This document shows positions 3,855 to 15,183 of a DNA stretch of 27,015 bases, one piece after another (within the stretch, counting starts at the first letter, position 1; every line of letters starts with the position of its first letter). The stretch comes from Candidatus Woesearchaeota archaeon (lineage in GTDB: Archaea; Nanobdellota; Nanobdellia; UBA10117; ARS21), in contig CAZYQG010000001.1 in the NCBI GenBank assembly GCA_964649785.1, positions 1 through 27,015 on the forward strand. The letters run 5' to 3'. The translations under genes were made by a program, and so were the position numbers. The notes beneath the pieces are model-generated. The model was given only the letters and a program-made list of their open reading frames with translations. It was not told the DNA's origin and did not search any database.

Positions 3855-5213
3855 CTAAAACATTCCAGGCATTTTTGGCATGCCTTTCTTTCCCATTAAT
3901 TTTTGCATTCTTGCGAACTTTTTTGATTTTCCAGAGAATGCTTTCATCATTTTCTTCATTTGCTTATATTGTTTAATCAAATCTCGCATTTCAGTTTCAT
4001 CTCTTCCTGAACCTTTTACAATTCTTTGAATTCTTGATTCATTCATTAAAGAAGGATTATCTTTTTCTTGTACGGTCATTGAGTCCATTAAGTATTTCCA
4101 TACTTTCATATTCTCTTCTTGCTCTTTCAATTGATCTTTTGGAATATTCATTTTTCCCATTCCTGGAATCATGTTTGCAACTTGTCCAAGCGGTCCCATT
4201 TTTTTCAGAGCCTCCATTTGATTGTACAAATCAGTGAAAGAAATTTCTCCTTTCATGATATTTTTTGCAGCCTTTTCTGCTGTTTCTTGATCAATTGCTT
4301 CACTGGCTTTTTCTAAAAGAGTTTCAAGATCTCCCATTCCCAAAATTCTAGAAACGAAATTTTTTGGTTTAAATTCTTCAATTGCGTCAAGTTTTTCTCC
4401 AACTCCAATGAAATTTACTTTTGCCTTTGTTGCTGCAGCTGCCGAAAGAGCTCCACCACCTTTTGCAGTACCATCAAGTTTTGTAACAATAACTCCAGTT
4501 ACTCCTACTGCTTTGTGGAATGATTCTGCTGTTTTTTGAGCCGCTTGTCCAATATCTCCAGATAAAACTAACAGTTTAGTTTGAGCTTGAACTGCTTTAT
4601 CGATTGATTCAATTTCTTTTGTTAATTCATCATTCAATGCGTCTCGACCTGCAGTATCGATGATTACTAATTCATAGTTTTCTAGATCTTTCTTGACTGC
4701 GTTATAAATTTTTACTGGATTTCTTTCTTTTGCATCACCATAAAAATCAACTTTCAAAACATCAGCCAATTGTTTTAATTGAGCATAAGCTGCCGGTCTC
4801 CAAGTGTCAGTTTGAACAAGTGCGATTTTCTTCCCTCGCTTCTTGTATAATTTTGCAAGTTTTCCTGCAGTAGTAGTTTTACCTGAACCGAACAGACCAA
4901 CTAACATAATTTTTGTTGGTTTAACTTCAGTCGGAATTTCTTCGAATTCCTTTCCTAAAAGATTAGTTAATTCTTCATAAACAATGTTGACAGTATGTTC
5001 TCTAGCAGTTAATCCACCAGCTACTTTTTCCTTAAGTGCCCGCTTTTCAATATTTTTTGCTATTTCTCGGGCAAGTTCAATTGAAACGTCTGCTGAAATC
5101 AGTGATTTCTTGATTTCTGAGCAGAGTTCTTCTACTGCTTCTTTGTCAACTTTACCTGAAGTCAGCTTTTTCAGAGCGTTTTTCAGAGAGTCAGATAACT
5201 TATCTAAGACCAT
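3855..5213 (-). CDS. srp54: Signal recognition particle protein SRP54
   Basis: GLFGSGKTTT, DTWRPAAY, DTAGR, TKLDGTAKGGGALS, RILGMGD and a Met-rich M domain. Confidence 0.98.
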   Translation of the reverse strand: MVLDKLSDSLKNALKKLTSGKVDKEAVEELCSEIKKSLISADVSIELAREIAKNIEKRALKEKVAGGLTAREHTVNIVYEELTNLLGKEFEEIPTEVKPTKIMLVGLFGSGKTTTAGKLAKLYKKRGKKIALVQTDTWRPAAYAQLKQLADVLKVDFYGDAKERNPVKIYNAVKKDLENYELVIIDTAGRDALNDELTKEIESIDKAVQAQTKLLVLSGDIGQAAQKTAESFHKAVGVTGVIVTKLDGTAKGGGALSAAAATKAKVNFIGVGEKLDAIEEFKPKNFVSRILGMGDLETLLEKASEAIDQETAEKAAKNIMKGEISFTDLYNQMEALKKMGPLGQVANMIPGMGKMNIPKDQLKEQEENMKVWKYLMDSMTVQEKDNPSLMNESRIQRIVKGSGRDETEMRDLIKQYKQMKKMMKAFSGKSKKFARMQKLMGKKGMPKMPGMF

Positions 5214-5317: not shown

Positions 5318-5899
5318 ATGTTCAAAGAAGAATTATTTTCGTTAATAGATTCATTGGAAGAGCTATATCAAACTGAACAGGTTAGCGATAAACAATATTC
5401 TTTACCAAAACTTTGCAACCTTATTCAAAAAAACCACGATGCAAATTCCAAACTTTGGATTAATGAGGAAGTTGCGAGGTCTGATGATATTGAAAACTCA
5501 AAAATTGTTAATGCAAAACGAAAGATTGATAGTTTAAATCAAATAAGAAATGATTGCGTTGAGTTAATCAATAATGAGTTAGTATCGCTTTTGTTAAAAG
5601 ATAAGATTAATCTTGACGATTTTGAAAAGTTCAATTCAGAAAGTTTTGGGAGTATAATTGATAGATTCTCAATAATGTATTTGAAACATTTTTACATGTT
5701 TCAACTTATAAATAACTCAAACTTAGAAGAATCTTTAAAAGCTTCTTGCAAAACTAAACTCTCGTTGATTGAAAATCAAAAGGCAGATCTTAAATATTTT
5801 CTCCAGGAATTGATTGAAGATATGTATTCTAAACGTCGCGCGTTTAAAATATACAAACAATTTAAAACATACAACAATCCAAAATTAAGAACATTTTAA
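5318..5899 (+). CDS. DUF4254 family protein (all-alpha, function unknown)
   Basis: NSKLWINEEVAR, KRKIDSLNQIRND, ESFGSIIDRFSIMYLKHFYM and YKQFKTYN match the DUF4254 motif series as I recall it. Confidence 0.78.
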   Translation: MFKEELFSLIDSLEELYQTEQVSDKQYSLPKLCNLIQKNHDANSKLWINEEVARSDDIENSKIVNAKRKIDSLNQIRNDCVELINNELVSLLLKDKINLDDFEKFNSESFGSIIDRFSIMYLKHFYMFQLINNSNLEESLKASCKTKLSLIENQKADLKYFLQELIEDMYSKRRAFKIYKQFKTYNNPKLRTF

Positions 5900-7507
5900 T
5901 TTATATAATGGAGATATTTTAATTGAGTCCTCAATTGTTCTATTATCTAGGTTTTTTACATTTTTTAATAATTCCAAAGGATTGTAATACTCTAGAAATT
6001 CTTCCAGTTTAAATTCTTTTGAAAGTTTGATATAATTTTTGTAAATATTTTCAAGATTCCCCTTTTTAGGAAGATTGGTTTCGCATCCAATTTTATCTAT
6101 CAAAGTTAGAACATTATCTAATCTATTTGATTCTTTCTTACTAATTACTACAGGCAACTGATAGGGTGAATAGCCACAGAATCCGATTGGAGATTCTCCA
6201 GCCATAGACCTTTTACTTTCATTATCCCAGCTTTCTGCGAAATATATAGTGAAATTGATTATTTTCTTATGCGTAACTAATGAAGCTATTGCAGAATCGC
6301 AAGCAAATACTAAGTTTATATTATTCACTTCAATCTTTTTACTTAACTCAGATATAGATTTGTCTTCCAGTATTTTACATAATGAATATCTCAATTCAAT
6401 TTGTGTTAACAACTTTTCAACTAATTTATAGTTTTTTGAACCTTTCTTTCCACATGAGATAAATATATTATTTACTTTTTTACTGTCTAAGTTTATGACC
6501 AAATTTTTCACAAAATTCAAACTCATTTCCTTTACCTTTGTAGATGCAAACGGTGCAATCAATATGTTAAGATTATGTTTATCTAACTTTAAATTATTTT
6601 TTCCAAATAAATTGATGTTGCAAGGCATAAATGGTTCAAGACAATCATTCATATGTGCTTCAATGTTGCCCGAGCTTAGTAATGGATCTTCCCGCTTAAG
6701 ATGAACAATTCTATTCTTATTATTTGGATTTATATTTACTAATAAATTTCTCCCAGGCAGGAAGTAAGTTAGCTTTTTATTTAAAGTTCCAATTATATCG
6801 ACTGAGCTTATGAAATGAGCATCAATTATGTCTGGCATAATTATTAGAGAATTATCCTTAATTGTTTGTTTCATTATATTAATATCCAGATCTTTAATAT
6901 TTATGAAATCTTGACTGATATGGTTCTTGAAACGTGAAAAACTGGAAACGATATTCAAGTTAAATTGCTCTTTAAGTTTATTTGAGTAATAACGACTTAT
7001 GATAGTATCACCAATATAATTGAATAAATTTATTGAATAAGCATTCCTAACATTCTTTAAATTTTTTAAAACTTCCTTTCTAAATTCTATCAATTTTACA
7101 TTTTCAATTTTTGTATTAAGAATTGATTCTAACACTTCCCTTTGTTCTTTCCTAAGTATTTCTGAACACAAACAAAGTCTGATTTCATATCCACTAACTT
7201 TTTTATTGATGATTTTTGATAAAATCTCAAAAGGATAACCTATTTGTAGTCTGAAGTTACCAGACCTTTTTTTTGTGATCATTAGAAATATATTTTTTTC
7301 TAATTCAATGATTTTATATTTTTCAGATTTTAAAACAACTTTTTTAATAATTCTATCAATTTTCACATTATTTTTTTTGTAGAACTTTTCCAAATAACTA
7401 AGTGAATCAGTAAATATATCGCCAACATTCGTTTCAGTAATAATATTCTTTTTACAATTTTTTAAATGGAAATCAGATATTTGTGTTAAATGCGTTGATA
7501 ATGCCAT
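5885..7507 (-). CDS. GT-B glycosyltransferase, GT9/heptosyltransferase-like, with ~150-aa extra N-terminal region
   Basis: YIGDTII (cf. GT9 iGD.vl), ILIAPFASTKVKE (cf. PGAS...K.W) and SISELSKKI....LVFACDSAIASL (cf. l.el..li..adl.i..Dsg..Hl). Highly divergent; the canonical His is not seen. Confidence 0.55.
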   Translation of the reverse strand: MALSTHLTQISDFHLKNCKKNIITETNVGDIFTDSLSYLEKFYKKNNVKIDRIIKKVVLKSEKYKIIELEKNIFLMITKKRSGNFRLQIGYPFEILSKIINKKVSGYEIRLCLCSEILRKEQREVLESILNTKIENVKLIEFRKEVLKNLKNVRNAYSINLFNYIGDTIISRYYSNKLKEQFNLNIVSSFSRFKNHISQDFINIKDLDINIMKQTIKDNSLIIMPDIIDAHFISSVDIIGTLNKKLTYFLPGRNLLVNINPNNKNRIVHLKREDPLLSSGNIEAHMNDCLEPFMPCNINLFGKNNLKLDKHNLNILIAPFASTKVKEMSLNFVKNLVINLDSKKVNNIFISCGKKGSKNYKLVEKLLTQIELRYSLCKILEDKSISELSKKIEVNNINLVFACDSAIASLVTHKKIINFTIYFAESWDNESKRSMAGESPIGFCGYSPYQLPVVISKKESNRLDNVLTLIDKIGCETNLPKKGNLENIYKNYIKLSKEFKLEEFLEYYNPLELLKNVKNLDNRTIEDSIKISPLYKLKCS

Positions 7508-10547: not shown

Positions 10548-10574
10548 CTAAAGTATTTTCTTAATTATTTCGTC
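10548..10574. repeat. Degenerate third copy of the repeat, forming the ftsY 3' end
   Basis: TTAATTATTTCGTC (10561-10574) is identical to 5264-5277. Over the last 9 codons, 21/27 nt match the left copy (DEIIKKIL* vs DEIIKQIL*). Confidence 0.75.
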
Positions 10575-11459
10575 GGCGCTGAATTCTTTCAAATCTTTGT
10601 ATTCTTGACCAATTCCTAAGAAAAGTATTGGTTTTCCAGTTTCGTGTGCTACTGAAATTATTGCTCCACCTCTTTCGTCAGCGTCAGCTTTTGTCAAAAT
10701 TACTCCATCAATGCCAATTTTTTCTCCAAAGAGTTTTGCTTGGTCAACTGCGTCATTTCCAGTTAAAGAATCAACAACTAGAATTGTAAAATCTGGTTTA
10801 GATACTCTTTTTACCTTTTCAAGTTCTCGCATCAAGTCTTCGTTTGCGTGACTTCTTCCTGCAGTATCTATTAAAACATAATCTAGTTTCTTTGCCTTTG
10901 CATGTTCAATTGCGTCGAACGCGACTGCTGCAGCATCAGAACCATAACTATGTTTTATTAGATTGATTTTAAGTTTGTCAGCGTGTGCTTGAATTTGTTC
11001 AATTGCTGCTGCTCGGAAAGTATCACCTGCGGCCATTACTACTTTCTTCTTTTTCTTTTGAAGATGCGATGCAAGTTTTGCAAGAGTTGTTGTCTTACCA
11101 ACACCATTAACTCCAACAAACATTATTTTGATTGGTTTGTCGCCTTTGTAAATATCAATTGCCTCTGCTGAGAGAATTTCTTTTAATTTTTTCTCAAGAG
11201 TTTTCTTTAGTTCTTTTGGCTTGGATTCTTTTATTGTTTCCTTTAATTCTTCAGTTACGGAATAAGCAACATTATTTGTCAACAATTCTTCTTCAAGCTC
11301 TTCTATAATTTTTTTGAGTTTAGATTTTTCTAAATTCTTAACAACATTTAATTTTGATACAAAAGAAGGTTTCTTTTCTTTCTTTGCTACAGGTTTTTTT
11401 GTTTCCTTCTCTACATTTTTTCTTACTTTTGAAAAAACAGATTTTAGACGCCCTAACAT
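10548..11459 (-). CDS. ftsY: Signal recognition particle receptor FtsY
   Basis: GVNGVGKTTT, DTFRAAAIEQ, DTAGR and TKADAD..GG. GAGGT Shine-Dalgarno upstream. Confidence 0.97.
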   Translation of the reverse strand: MLGRLKSVFSKVRKNVEKETKKPVAKKEKKPSFVSKLNVVKNLEKSKLKKIIEELEEELLTNNVAYSVTEELKETIKESKPKELKKTLEKKLKEILSAEAIDIYKGDKPIKIMFVGVNGVGKTTTLAKLASHLQKKKKKVVMAAGDTFRAAAIEQIQAHADKLKINLIKHSYGSDAAAVAFDAIEHAKAKKLDYVLIDTAGRSHANEDLMRELEKVKRVSKPDFTILVVDSLTGNDAVDQAKLFGEKIGIDGVILTKADADERGGAIISVAHETGKPILFLGIGQEYKDLKEFSADEIIKKIL

Positions 11460-14029: not shown

Positions 14030-14554
14030 ATGAAATTGAAAGATTCAGAGCATGTTTATTCTCCTCGTGAGGATTCAAAATTGTTACAACGTGTTGTTGA
14101 GGACTACATGAAAAAGTTCAAACCTAATCGAGTTTTGGATATGGGAACGGGTTCTGGAATTCAAGCAATAACTGCTAAGAAATCTTATGCAAATGCTGAA
14201 GTATTTGGTGCAGATATTAATCCAATGGCTATCGATTTAGCTACTGAAAATGCTAAATTTAATTCTGCGGAGATTAAGTTTTTTGTATCTGATTTATTTG
14301 AGAGATTTCAAGATCAGAAGTTTGATTTGATTATTTTTAACGCACCATATTTACCTCCTGAACCTCCGCTTGATCCGATTTGGAGCGGTGGAGAGAAATT
14401 TATTCTCAAATTTATTAAATTGGCGCGCGAACATTTAAATCACAATGGAAAGATTCTATTTGTTTATTCTTCAAAATCTCCAGTTAAATTCAAACATAAA
14501 ATCATTGCTGAAGAGAAAGTATTTTTTGAAACACTCTATGTTGCTGAGGCGTGA
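14030..14554 (+). CDS. HemK2/PrmC-like protein-glutamine N5-methyltransferase (putative aRF1 methylase)
   Basis: VYSPREDS.LL, VLDMGTGSGIQA and DLIIFNAPYLP (NPPY-type motif). Confidence 0.87.
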   Translation: MKLKDSEHVYSPREDSKLLQRVVEDYMKKFKPNRVLDMGTGSGIQAITAKKSYANAEVFGADINPMAIDLATENAKFNSAEIKFFVSDLFERFQDQKFDLIIFNAPYLPPEPPLDPIWSGGEKFILKFIKLAREHLNHNGKILFVYSSKSPVKFKHKIIAEEKVFFETLYVAEA

Positions 14555-14557
14555 TAA

Positions 14558-14572
14558 GGTTTATATTAAACC
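14558..14572 (+). promoter_or_regulatory. TATA-containing 15-bp palindrome upstream of the ncRNA candidate
   Basis: GGTTTA-TAT-TAAACC; its TTTATATT core lies about -30 to -23 from position 14590. Confidence 0.5.
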
Positions 14573-14589
14573 TGTGTCTTCTTGATTTA

Positions 14590-14884
14590 AGAAGACGGGG
14601 CTAACCTTGTGAATCACTTAAAGTTAAGTTTCAACTCTCGCGAGTGAAGCTATAAAGAGTGATAAGGGCAATAAGGGCAACTGTTAGTAGCTTGAGACGA
14701 CGATTGGGGAAAATAGGCCGCGATATGCGAACCCTTTTCGATTCGTTTGATCCCTCACTAGCATCTCTTAATGTCAGAAGAGGCTATTGACCGAGCTGTT
14801 TGAGCTGAAGAGTTCATTAAGAATTCATTCAGGAGGGCAACACTTTGGCCGTGGACCTTTTCCTCATGGGCCTATACGTCTTCT
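14590..14884 (+). ncRNA. Candidate ~295-nt structured non-coding RNA, class unassigned
   Basis: No ORF >=60 aa. Ends pair (AGAAGACG 14590-14597 / CGTCTTCT 14877-14884). Long helix 14706-14722 with 14850-14865, plus several hairpins. G-U pairs mostly favour the + strand. TATA upstream and T6 runs downstream. Confidence 0.6.
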
Positions 14885-14887
14885 AAA

Positions 14888-14893
14888 TTTTTT
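14888..14893 (+). terminator. Oligo-T tract (archaeal intrinsic terminator candidate) after the ncRNA
   Basis: T6 starts 4 nt after the 3' closing strand; a second T6 is at 14905-14910. Confidence 0.4.
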
Positions 14894-14937
14894 AGTTTCG
14901 AGCGTTTTTTAAGTTTTAATACTAAGAACATAGTCCC

Positions 14938-15183
14938 ATGTTAAGCGCATATGTATTAATAAAAACTCAAGCAGGTCAAGAGAAAGATGTTCTTGAGACT
15001 TTGAATTCTGACGACAGTATTGTAGATGTAAGTATTGTTTACGGTCAATATGATTTGATTGCAAAAGTTTTCTTGAATGATATGACTGATTTGCCAACAT
15101 TTATCATGGAAACAATTAGACCAATTAAGGGGATTACAGAAACTTCTACTTTGCTCGCAGCTTACGACCCTTCGAGTGCTTAA
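14938..15183 (+). CDS. Stand-alone Lrp/AsnC ligand-binding (RAM) domain protein, no HTH
   Basis: AYVLIKT..G.E..V, VYGQYDLIAKV, IRPIKGITETSTL. Confidence 0.9.
   Translation: MLSAYVLIKTQAGQEKDVLETLNSDDSIVDVSIVYGQYDLIAKVFLNDMTDLPTFIMETIRPIKGITETSTLLAAYDPSSA

Follow-up and report, generated by a model that had tools for sequence, protein, structure and literature searches.

The window, a 27,015-nt stretch of archaeal DNA, contains one long interval between its genes, which raises the question of what this interval encodes. The initial annotation had placed there, at 14590-14884, an unassigned structured RNA of ~295 nt with its own promoter and terminator, and had offered three readings of it: a very divergent SRP RNA, a very divergent RNase P RNA or a new class of non-coding RNA (ncRNA). 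From a circular junction found in RNA only, the abundance of the transcript, the geometry of a bulge-helix-bulge (BHB) site, the conservation of the locus, a fold that covaries and the lack of signatures of SRP or RNase P RNA, we consider it very probable that the locus is a stand-alone gene for a BHB-processed, 272-nt circular ncRNA of a marine DPANN archaeon (Woesearchaeota/Nanoarchaeota) that matches no known family.

Results

Promoter, termination signals and neighbours of the locus

The interval at 14555-14937 is indeed the longest non-coding gap in the window. Three signals frame the element, of which the T-runs were read directly from the sequence:

14560-14567, + strand: TATA box TTTATATT, invariant in all homologs within a spacer that varies
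14888-14893, + strand: T-run, likely an archaeal oligo-T termination signal
14905-14910, + strand: second T-run, likely of the same kind

The BHB outer helix described below begins ~26 nt downstream of the centre of the TATA box. Several homologs have an imperfect first T-run, and the second lies inside a TTTTTAAGTTTTAAT block that is conserved in the homologs and may be a promoter of the downstream Lrp-like gene too. The promoter proposed earlier is backed by the invariance of the TATA-like sequence, and the terminator is likely, since T-runs follow the element and RNA coverage stops at 14875.

At the homologous loci, an 81-aa Lrp/AsnC-domain gene always lies directly downstream of the RNA element, and loci L013 and L014 have an extra methyltransferase gene inserted on the side of the element opposite the Lrp-like gene. 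The same window encodes SRP54 (3855-5213) and FtsY (10548-11459). No EndA or RtcB gene was found in the ~47 kb inspected around the locus, and the ~10 kb beyond each window end contain, except for one tRNA-His gene, no gene for SRP19, an RNase P protein, EndA, RtcB or a further tRNA. The tRNA-His gene (L044) is the single tRNA gene seen in the lineage; a TATA-like box ~27-30 nt upstream of its G-1 suggests that it has little or no leader. A coding reading of the element itself was rejected: its ORFs have at most 51 codons, the indels among homologs are not multiples of three, and neither of two protein searches returned anything. The 43-aa ORF within the element has no exact counterpart on record, and the 46-aa frame that spans the junction yields no candidate.

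A circular transcript in marine metatranscriptomes

Transcription was followed in 13 marine metatranscriptome runs drawn from many studies and library types, which were inspected as assembled contigs, not reads, with depth given as assembler word depth. The RNA is present in all 13, and the only part of the locus covered is the following:

14604-14875, + strand: mature 272-nt circular RNA, with the back-joint 14875->14604 in metatranscriptomes

The flanking genes, the Lrp-like gene included, have a depth of ~0. The junction 14875|14604 is carried by 12 of the 13 runs; a direct back-joint from 14875 to 14604, a jump back of 272 nt, occurs in ten (X25-X31, X35, X36 and X42), and a loose end "...GGGCCTAT" stands immediately before 14604 in runs X33, X34 and X36. 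The RNA contigs are 301-302 nt long, which equals 272 + k-1 (272 + 30), whole unitigs close on themselves, and none enters the leader upstream of 14604 or the trailer beyond 14875. DNA data do not contain the joint: six metagenome runs (X1-X6) are contiguous without it (0/6), and the junction pattern has 0 matches among the 241 million assembled records of metagenome_contigs. A variant of 87% identity is likewise expressed only within its predicted circle and has an identical junction. Two nucleotides (AC) are shared at the joint, and cut sites one or two positions further on are also allowed; the sequence has no terminal direct repeat of k-mer length.

The stretch 14604-14875 is a circular RNA by its junction, its occurrence in RNA only and its abundance, and it is among the most abundant transcripts of this uncultured, genome-reduced marine DPANN lineage. 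The ~295-nt RNA of the initial annotation is thus a real, independently transcribed gene, but its mature form is a circle of 272 nt and not a linear molecule of 295 nt, the proposed closing helix being removed in maturation.

The junction coincides with a conserved bulge-helix-bulge site

A BHB is defined by a central 4-bp helix with flanking 3-nt bulges, which are cut by the splicing endonuclease, after which RtcB circularises the excised part (PMC4731332). When the leader and trailer strands of the element were cofolded, they formed the series helix, bulge, helix, bulge, helix, with these parts:

14590-14603, + strand: leader, removed in maturation
14590-14597 / 14877-14884, + strand: BHB outer helix AGAAGACG / CGUCUUCU, 8 bp, present in the cofold and covarying
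14598-14601 / 14870-14873, + strand: BHB central helix GGGC / GCCU, 4 bp, present in the cofold and invariant in 15 homologs
14602-14604, + strand: 5' bulge UAA, 3 nt, its length kept in all homologs (AUA in L010)
14874-14876, + strand: 3' bulge AUA, 3 nt, its length kept in all homologs
14876 onward, + strand: trailer, removed in maturation, the circle ending at 14875

In both bulges the joint corresponds to a cut behind nucleotide two, although the AC ambiguity also permits a position after the third. Beyond the bulges, the inner helix of the BHB (CC/GG) runs on into helix A of the mature RNA, which has two compensatory pairs. In the outer helix, three pairs are changed on both sides; AAGGCG/CGCCUU replaces AAGACG/CGUCUU in L010, and in the group of L004, L013 and L019 a change of register (AAGAAG/CUUCU versus AGAAAG/CUUUCU) is matched on both strands. 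The 8-bp helix that had been taken to close the RNA therefore exists and covaries, but it belongs to the processing site and is cut off from the mature RNA; the closing-helix reading overlooked the decisive BHB and with it the circular product. By analogy with known BHB processing, the archaeal splicing endonuclease and an RtcB ligase would be expected to act on such a site, and they are presumably the enzymes at work here.

Conservation and covariation support a four-armed fold

We collected 15 distinct homologs, all from marine Woesearchaeota/Nanoarchaeota and forming one narrow clade of at least 70% identity, in which the most divergent type has 73% identity. The assemblies JAAZWY01, CAYFOG01, JABIPN01 and CAXGHT01 are among the carriers of the element. 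A scan of viral_contigs with the family pattern gave 0 matches, and BLAST against phage and plasmid collections gave no match. The identity of the element is 94-99% where that of its flanks is 75-93%, and it is under stronger purifying selection than the neighbouring ribosomal-protein genes. Many unpaired nucleotides of the circle are invariant.

A consensus fold was derived from the alignment of the 15 homologs, and changes were counted pair by pair. It contains 97 pairs, with 98.7% of cells paired, and 21 of these pairs show compensatory double changes, compared with 6.6±1.8 in shuffles (0/500) and 1-5 in slid controls; covariation, which had been named as the check on an RNA gene, is thus found. 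Many invariant G-U pairs, which would be A-C on the other strand, fix the + strand as the one that folds, and the comparison of the fold with shuffles agrees (z of -2.44 for the + strand and -0.89 for the - strand). The homologs support a predicted architecture of four arms round a central junction:

14605-14611 / 14863-14869, + strand: helix A, 2 of 6 pairs with double compensatory changes
14613-14663, + strand: arm B/C, consisting of helix B, an internal loop and hairpin C
14613-14618 / 14658-14663, + strand: helix B, 3 of 6 pairs with double compensatory changes
14627-14637 / 14642-14651, + strand: hairpin C of the consensus fold, with an invariant UCGC tetraloop
14667-14775, + strand: arm D, 109 nt, with compensatory changes along the whole arm
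14667-77/14765-75, 14682-88/14757-63, 14695-703/14738-48 and 14707-09/14732-34, + strand: helices of arm D in the consensus fold
14719-14721 / 14727-14729, + strand: tip hairpin of arm D in the consensus fold
14678-81, 14713-18 and 14722-26, + strand: invariant unpaired parts of arm D (CAAC bulge, AUAGGC and GAUAU loop)
14777-14862, + strand: arm E, 86 nt, with helices 14777-800/14839-62 and 14805-14/14822-35
14713-14719 / 14869-14875, + strand: candidate loop-loop pseudoknot AUAGGCC / GGCCUAU, complementary and fully invariant, ending at the ligation junction

In arm D, the compensations include C-G to A-U at 14669/14773 and A-U to G-C at 14700/14743, and the 3-bp helix 14707-09/14732-34 changes from G-C to A-U in five sequences. 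Arm E has eight pairs with double compensatory changes, among them the series G-C, G-U and A-U at 14777/14862; its internal loop of UGAG (14801-04) opposite GG (14836-37) is invariant, and its tip varies in sequence and length. Helix A is capped in the circle by a 7-nt junction loop made of G14870-U14875 and A14604 (GCCUAU|A). This loop would form the candidate pseudoknot with AUAGGCC, a complementarity that the initial annotation had pointed out and that is the only fully invariant long-range one of at least 6 nt. Because its strands never vary, the pairing lies beyond the reach of covariation, and we treat it as a putative contact.

Other structural proposals fared unequally. The hairpin placed at ~14628-14650 is present, at 14627-14651 in the consensus. 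The long helix GGGGAAAA-UA-GGCCGCG / CGUGGACC-UUUUCCUC (14706-22/14850-65) is paired in 79.8% of cells across the 15 homologs, with 0 compensatory changes; several of its pairs are broken in most sequences, it competes with the covarying helices, and it was rejected. The CCCUC/GAGGG pairing, said to enclose two hairpins, lies outside the supported fold. As for direct repeats, the tandem ATAAGGGCA x2 (14662-79) and the AGGGCAAC copies at 14674 and 14834 are present in the window, but the copy at 14834 and the first ATAAGGGCA are unconserved in the homologs.

Known RNA families and other explanations

Rfam was scanned with 4227 models, which covered the linear locus rather than the rotated circle. 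Sensitive mode returned two noise matches in 14500-14960, neither of them SRP nor RNase P, and only noise in the whole window, where no SRP or RNase P RNA was detected; the novelty of the element is left standing. In gathering mode, neither the window nor any of 17 related loci gave a match; we discount these negatives because this mode missed a tRNA-His of 44.5 bits, and we rely on the sensitive-mode scans.

It is improbable that the element represents an extremely diverged, circularised form of the RNase P RNA of this lineage, in which AUAGGCC/GGCCUAU would serve as P4, helix A would be P2, arm B/C would correspond to a helix-loop-helix P3, and BHB cleavage and ligation would take the place of P1. 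The size of ~270 nt and the housekeeping-like abundance are shared with archaeal RNase P RNA, the order of junction, helix A and helix-loop-helix arm resembles P1/P2/P3, purine-rich sequence (GGGGAAAAUAGGCC in the window and GAGGAAAAUAGGCC in L010) precedes the invariant pseudoknot-like pairing, and no RNase P RNA was detected in the window. However, the models RNaseP_arch and RNaseP-T have no match on the element at E<=10. Strings resembling the universal segments CR-I (GGAAAGUCC-like; G.AA..UC.G.G, GAAR.YC) or CR-V (ACAGAA...GGCUUA-like; AC..RA....G..UA, A.A.AA), patterns reportedly given by Chen and Pace in 1997, are missing in strict and loose form from four homologs in any rotation, and from the circle in any rotation or strand, so that the absence of the ACAGAA element noted earlier extends to all rotations. 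The stretch before the P4 strand, J3/4, is nearly invariant in RNase P, whereas the A-rich stretch before AUAGGCC varies freely (AAAA, AUAA, AUUA, AGGA, AGAA). AUAGGCC/GGCCUAU could be a P4-type helix and is invariant, but its 5' strand is enclosed in the apical region of the covarying arm D, which appears not to fit RNase P topology. The apparent lack of a substantial leader on the tRNA-His gene also weighs against this identity.

To a similarly low degree of probability, the circle could be a stable by-product, a BHB intron from the 5' UTR of the Lrp-like mRNA or of a longer transcript whose spliced exons are the functional product. BHB introns of archaea are known to form lasting circles after excision, the element keeps its place upstream of the Lrp/AsnC gene even in L013 and L014, and, as noted, several homologs have an imperfect first T-run. 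Against this, the leader is only ~14 nt, the Lrp-like gene has an RNA depth of ~0 in 13/13 runs, and many unpaired nucleotides of the element are invariant; moreover, the circle and not its flanks is the most conserved DNA of the locus and carries 21 compensatory pairs in its internal helices, which argues for selection on the structure of the circle itself. Even co-transcription would leave room for a function of the circle.

It is very improbable that the element is an SRP RNA, divergent or permuted, that gains its function through circularisation, as that of Thermoproteus tenax does. There is a direct precedent in a BHB-processed circular SRP RNA missed by standard models, the SRP54 and FtsY genes lie in the same window, the size of ~270-300 nt is suitable, and no SRP RNA was detected there; yet Archaea_SRP has no match on the element at E<=10. 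The SRP54-binding core of helix 8 consists of AGG, a short stem, GNAR, a short stem and AGCA. Searched for strictly or loosely as AGG-N-GNAR-N-AGCA, this core is absent in any rotation and on both strands, which extends the earlier failure to find the helix-8 loop. The pattern was drawn partly from PMC4731332. AGCA occurs once, at 14760-63, and reads AACA in several homologs; a conserved GNAR tetraloop of the helix 6 type is also absent, the invariant loops being UCGC and GAUAU, and GNAR closed by a stem occurs just once, as GCUGAAGAGU at 14804, where it is unconserved and forms no loop in the supported fold. The SRP54 of the window keeps the canonical RNA-binding motif of its M domain, SRIQRIVKGSG, and its RNA partner should therefore carry a canonical helix 8. 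The termini of the element, moreover, lie at the end of a helix and outside any functional loop, and the gene is thus not permuted in the Thermoproteus sense. With no Rfam match, no helix-8 core, no CR-I or CR-V and an apparent misfit in topology, the proposal of a very divergent SRP or RNase P RNA is not supported, and a new ncRNA class is the surviving one of the three options offered.

It is scarcely credible that assembly, or template switching by reverse transcriptase on a linear RNA of ~290 nt, created the junction artificially: the evidence does come from assembled contigs and AC is common to both sides, but the same joint recurs in 12 of 13 RNA runs of many studies and library types, in self-closing unitigs that never reach leader or trailer and have no k-mer-length terminal repeat, is missing from all DNA data (6 runs, 241 million records), and matches the symmetric bulge positions of a conserved, covarying BHB to the nucleotide.

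Several further classes were considered and rejected. No ACA follows arm D or arm E by eye, as an H/ACA guide sRNA would have. A C/D box guide sRNA would have C (RUGAUGA) and D (CUGA) boxes that form a K-turn, but the one CUGA considered (14805-08) reads UUGG in homologs of the L004 type, and there are no conserved tandem G-A pairs. In the covariation-supported loops, the G-A pairs or boxes required for K-turn and sarcin-ricin motifs are, by eye, absent or unconserved. ARAGORN finds no tRNA in the window that could harbour a BHB intron, and the joined leader and trailer make only a hairpin of ~30 nt.

Discussion

Our results suggest the following pathway for the circular RNA. Transcription would start ~26 nt downstream of the conserved TATA box and end at the downstream T-runs, and the ~14-nt leader and the trailer would pair into a canonical BHB, in the order 8-bp outer helix, 3-nt bulge, 4-bp central helix, 3-nt bulge on the other strand and inner helix. 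The tRNA-splicing endonuclease would cut after the second bulge nucleotide, at 14603|14604 and 14875|14876, and an RtcB-type ligase would close the ends into the 272-nt circle, which, being resistant to exonucleases, would build up far above the neighbouring mRNAs. The circle would fold into its four arms, and ligation would create the 7-nt loop GCCUAU|A on the shortest arm, a loop able to base-pair with the invariant AUAGGC near the apex of the longest arm. Since GCCU (14870-73) is locked in the BHB central helix before cleavage, the mature fold would be gated by processing.

Our best guess, resting on abundance, conservation and structure, is that the product belongs to a new family and acts as a stable RNA of the housekeeping type that binds protein. 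A fuller proposal, which we hold to be evenly balanced between right and wrong, is that a new class of circular RNAs with a housekeeping role in DPANN archaea has here its first member: the BHB-made circle would be the only product of its gene, would attain its functional fold only after ligation, through contact of the junction loop with AUAGGC, and would be the core of a novel abundant RNP or form higher-order assemblies through its self-complementary loops (GGCC, AUAU). On this view, the RNA would stand apart from SRP, RNase P and guide RNAs and not be one of their variants.

To our knowledge, archaea have no dedicated genes for circular structured RNAs beyond rRNA intermediates, introns, some guide RNAs and one permuted SRP RNA. 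If the function is new, the RNA adds a component to a supposedly closed list of universal or abundant archaeal RNPs, and the tRNA-splicing machinery builds stable RNAs in mesophiles, which would make this more than an adaptation to heat. If it is instead a cryptic RNase P or SRP RNA, it would explain why such RNAs are missing from annotations of DPANN genomes. Either way, its sequence, junction and fold form a concrete target for metatranscriptomics and biochemistry, and RNA gene finders should look for BHB-flanked genes.

Among known systems, the circular SRP RNA of Thermoproteus tenax and T. uzoniensis, whose gene has a TATA box 26 nt upstream, is a close parallel (Plagens et al. 2015, PMC4731332). 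As in Thermoproteus, the present ncRNA has a gene of its own, with a TATA box at ~26 nt and a short leader and trailer that form a BHB; both genes yield a circle of ~270-310 nt through the tRNA-splicing machinery (presumptively so here), and both went undetected by standard covariance models. The Thermoproteus RNA, however, is a permuted SRP RNA with a recognisable SRP54 site in helix 8, GNAR loops and termini in the tip of helix 8; in the present RNA, which is without these, the termini close a helix, and its host is a mesophilic marine DPANN archaeon rather than the hyperthermophilic Thermoproteus.

The circular pre-16S and pre-23S rRNA intermediates of archaea, and circularly permuted 23S rRNA, provide a second parallel (PMC7758197, PMC12918454), in that the endonuclease cuts a BHB in the leader/trailer processing stem and ligation then closes the excised functional RNA into a circle. 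Circular pre-rRNAs are usually re-opened, whereas the present RNA, with its 272 nt and no similarity to rRNA, appears to accumulate as a circle. Excised BHB introns of archaeal tRNA and rRNA and the tricRNAs of metazoans share the cleavage motif and the formation of a circle from the part between the bulges. In contrast to these, the "exons" of the present gene are a leader of ~14 nt and a short trailer that comprise no tRNA (ARAGORN), and the excised part is the conserved, structured product.

A circular RNA with an RNA-only junction

Our analysis indicates that the element at 14590-14884 (+) yields a bulge-helix-bulge (BHB)-processed, highly abundant 272-nt circular RNA (14604-14875) of a new family. 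We examined the locus in thirteen marine metatranscriptome runs, drawn from many studies, as assembled contigs. RNA coverage is confined to 14604-14875 in 13/13, and the adjacent genes, ribosomal-protein genes included, have essentially zero depth in the same runs; the steady-state abundance of the circle is very high relative to its neighbours. A joint that leads from 14875 back to 14604, i.e. a step back of 272 nt, is present in ten runs, and its contigs measure 301-302 nt, as expected from a 272-nt circle in a k=31 graph; further runs have contigs starting at 14604, immediately before which stands “...GGGCCTAT”, the 3′ end of 14604-14875 itself; and the junction is missing only from run X9, whose sole contig is 230 nt. 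The joint is absent from the six DNA metagenomes that hold the locus, where coverage is flat and contiguous, and the junction sequence has zero matches among 241 million assembled metagenome records. The junction is RNA-only and nucleotide-precise, and that it is an artefact is highly improbable.

For a variant of 87% identity (the type of related locus L013), RNA coverage likewise lies only within the predicted circle, and the same loose end recurs where this circle is predicted to begin. Several sequence variants of the circle co-occur in metatranscriptomes X25-X36 (e.g. a 1-nt deletion at 14706, and A>T at 14711); they match different MAG genotypes, which indicates that several populations express the circle at the same sites.

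A covarying BHB motif at the circle ends

The pairing around the circle ends is a BHB motif as the literature defines it, in which the tRNA-splicing endonuclease cuts in the bulges and RtcB circularises the intervening part (PMC4731332):

14590-97 / 14877-84 (+), outer helix, 8 bp, AGAAGACG / CGUCUUCU
14598-601 / 14870-73 (+), central helix, 4 bp, GGGC / GCCU
14602-04 (+), 5′ strand bulge, 3 nt, UAA
14874-76 (+), 3′ strand bulge, 3 nt, AUA
inner helix, starting CC/GG

The observed joint falls after the second nucleotide of each bulge, and a 2-nt AC ambiguity would equally allow cleavage after the third. Homologs preserve the motif, and its outer helix covaries: this helix reads AAGGCG/CGCCUU instead of AAGACG/CGUCUU in related locus L010, in the L004/L013/L019 group a register change from AAGAAG to AGAAAG on one strand is answered by CUUCU to CUUUCU on the other, and both bulges stay 3 nt across the compared homologs. 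By analogy with established archaeal BHB processing, the splicing endonuclease would cleave the motif and RtcB would ligate the product. The 8-bp closing helix of the initial annotation is therefore present and covarying, but it is a processing signal that is cut away and lies outside the mature RNA. The annotation is borne out in part: its option of a new ncRNA class is supported, and a BHB-processed circle is more unusual than the RNA it described.

A conserved four-arm fold under selection

Fifteen distinct full-length homologs (70-98% identity) came from synteny look-ups and a single pattern scan over metagenome contigs; all are marine, the known homologs so far forming one narrow clade, and three further pattern matches are chance. 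The circular consensus fold, which is conserved, has four arms round a central junction:

14605-11 / 14863-69 (+), helix A
14613-63 (+), arm B/C
14667-775 (+), arm D
14777-862 (+), arm E

Its 97 pairs, BHB included, are paired in 98.7% of alignment cells versus 42-47% with partners slid, and both-side changes occur at 21 pairs versus 6.6±1.8 in shuffles (0/500) and 1-5 in slid controls. The invariant unpaired elements are a UCGC tetraloop, a CAAC bulge, AUAGGC and a GAUAU loop, both near the arm D tip, and, in arm E, a UGAG/GG internal loop. Folding is better than in dinucleotide shuffles for the + strand (z −2.44) but not for the − strand (z −0.89); numerous invariant G-U pairs, which would be A-C mismatches on the opposite strand, together with the promoter and T-runs, fix the + strand. 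No other DNA of the locus is as well conserved along syntenic contigs as the element: over 14601-14700 its identity is 99% with L001-L003 and 94% with L004, against 75-93% for flanking coding DNA. The RNA is thus real and under selection, and conservation in relatives, the 21 pairs and a transcript in thirteen metatranscriptomes bear out the earlier proposal of an RNA gene. Its long-range helix GGGGAAAA-UA-GGCCGCG / CGUGGACC-UUUUCCUC does not hold: it is 79.8% paired across homologs with zero compensatory changes, its pairs are broken in up to 13/15 sequences, and the same nucleotides belong to helices that do covary.

AUAGGCC (14713-19) and GGCCUAU (14869-75) are the sole fully invariant long-range complementarity. 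GGCCUAU ends exactly at the ligation junction and supplies most of the 7-nt loop that caps helix A once ligation has formed it; before processing, the BHB central helix ties up its GCCU. From this anatomy we infer a candidate loop-loop pseudoknot that would be possible only after processing; because AUAGGCC/GGCCUAU never varies, it lies beyond the reach of covariation.

A dedicated gene in a translation- and secretion-rich locus

The window has a G+C content of ~33%, and among public genomes its nearest relatives are marine MAGs that carry the label Nanoarchaeota or Candidatus Woesearchaeota (DPANN archaea). The RNA gene sits within the window's longest non-coding gap (14555-14937), among genes rich in translation and secretion functions (S19e, L31e, eIF6, prefoldin, FtsY, SRP54, L21e, S24e):

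14030-14554, small MTS-type methyltransferase gene, upstream of the gap
14560-67, TATA-like box TTTATATT, invariant
14888-93 and 14905-10, T-runs 3′ of the element
14938-15183, 81-aa gene for a stand-alone Lrp/AsnC ligand-binding domain, downstream of the gap

A gap of ~370 nt lies immediately 5′ of the Lrp-like gene in every related contig, an arrangement that a stable 5′-UTR intron by-product of the Lrp-like mRNA would share. The element is a dedicated, promoter-bearing gene, and we consider such a by-product very unlikely. A conserved TTTTTAAGTTTTAAT block (14905-14920), 3′ of the RNA gene and 5′ of the Lrp-like ORF, could both supply the RNA with a terminator T-run and serve a leaderless Lrp-like mRNA as its TATA box. 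In one sub-clade (L013 2950-3624, L014 146-820), an inserted extra 224-aa SAM methyltransferase gene separates the MTS methyltransferase gene from the RNA gene, which remains attached to the Lrp-like gene.

Identity of the RNA

Against Rfam 15 in sensitive mode, the element, scanned in its linear genomic order, gave two noise matches, neither to an SRP nor to an RNase P family, in agreement with the novelty initially considered, and the whole window gave nothing meaningful. Gathering-mode scans were empty too and are discounted: in 45 kb this mode reported nothing despite a tRNA-His on related contig L044 (5356-5430, −), called by ARAGORN and scoring 44.5 bits in sensitive mode against a cut-off of 29, so its negatives are unreliable in this AT-rich lineage.

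The initial annotation also offered a divergent SRP or RNase P RNA. A cryptic RNase P RNA is improbable: no CR-I-like or CR-V-like string occurs in any rotation in four homologs, the purine-rich stretch before AUAGGCC varies freely, and the topology is unsuited, the AUAGGCC strand being inside arm D. A cryptic SRP RNA is less probable still. Thermoproteus circular SRP RNA, the closest known system, shares gene layout and maturation with the element but differs in RNA identity; no rotation on either strand contains the helix-8 SRP54 site or GNAR loops, and the element's single AGCA is not conserved. The window encodes FtsY (10548-11459, −) and SRP54 with its M domain (3855-5213, −); SRP54 keeps the canonical motif SRIQRIVKGSG, so its RNA partner should be canonical and elsewhere in the genome, and no SRP RNA is detectable in the window's 27 kb, sensitive mode included.

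Other identities were also rejected: H/ACA, C/D and K-turn features of guide RNAs are absent or unconserved; the joined flanks form no tRNA; internal and junction-spanning frames have no protein on record, and homolog indels are not multiples of 3; and phage and plasmid collections contain nothing similar. Full-text literature searches yielded no account of an RNA of this kind in DPANN. The anatomy of the circle suggests a stable, protein-binding RNA of housekeeping type.

Nanoarchaeum equitans has no RNase P. On L044 (5431-5464, −), a TTTTTTAAA box lies ~27-30 nt upstream of G−1 of the tRNA-His gene, a single case whose sequence suggests a transcript that is leaderless or nearly so, as in N. 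equitans. In the window, a PIN_9-domain protein (1660-2163, −) is encoded beside an Rpb7-like gene, with a shorter 125-aa version called in related contigs; we take this Pfam family to be the PIN domain of archaeal Nob1, the 16S rRNA 3′-end endonuclease. Four ORFs are without Pfam domains:

5885-7507 (−), 540 aa
20003-21181 (+), 392 aa
21183-23165 (+), 660 aa
13670-13996 (−), 108 aa

The 108-aa ORF is syntenic beside S19e in all related contigs, and the other three also recur among them.
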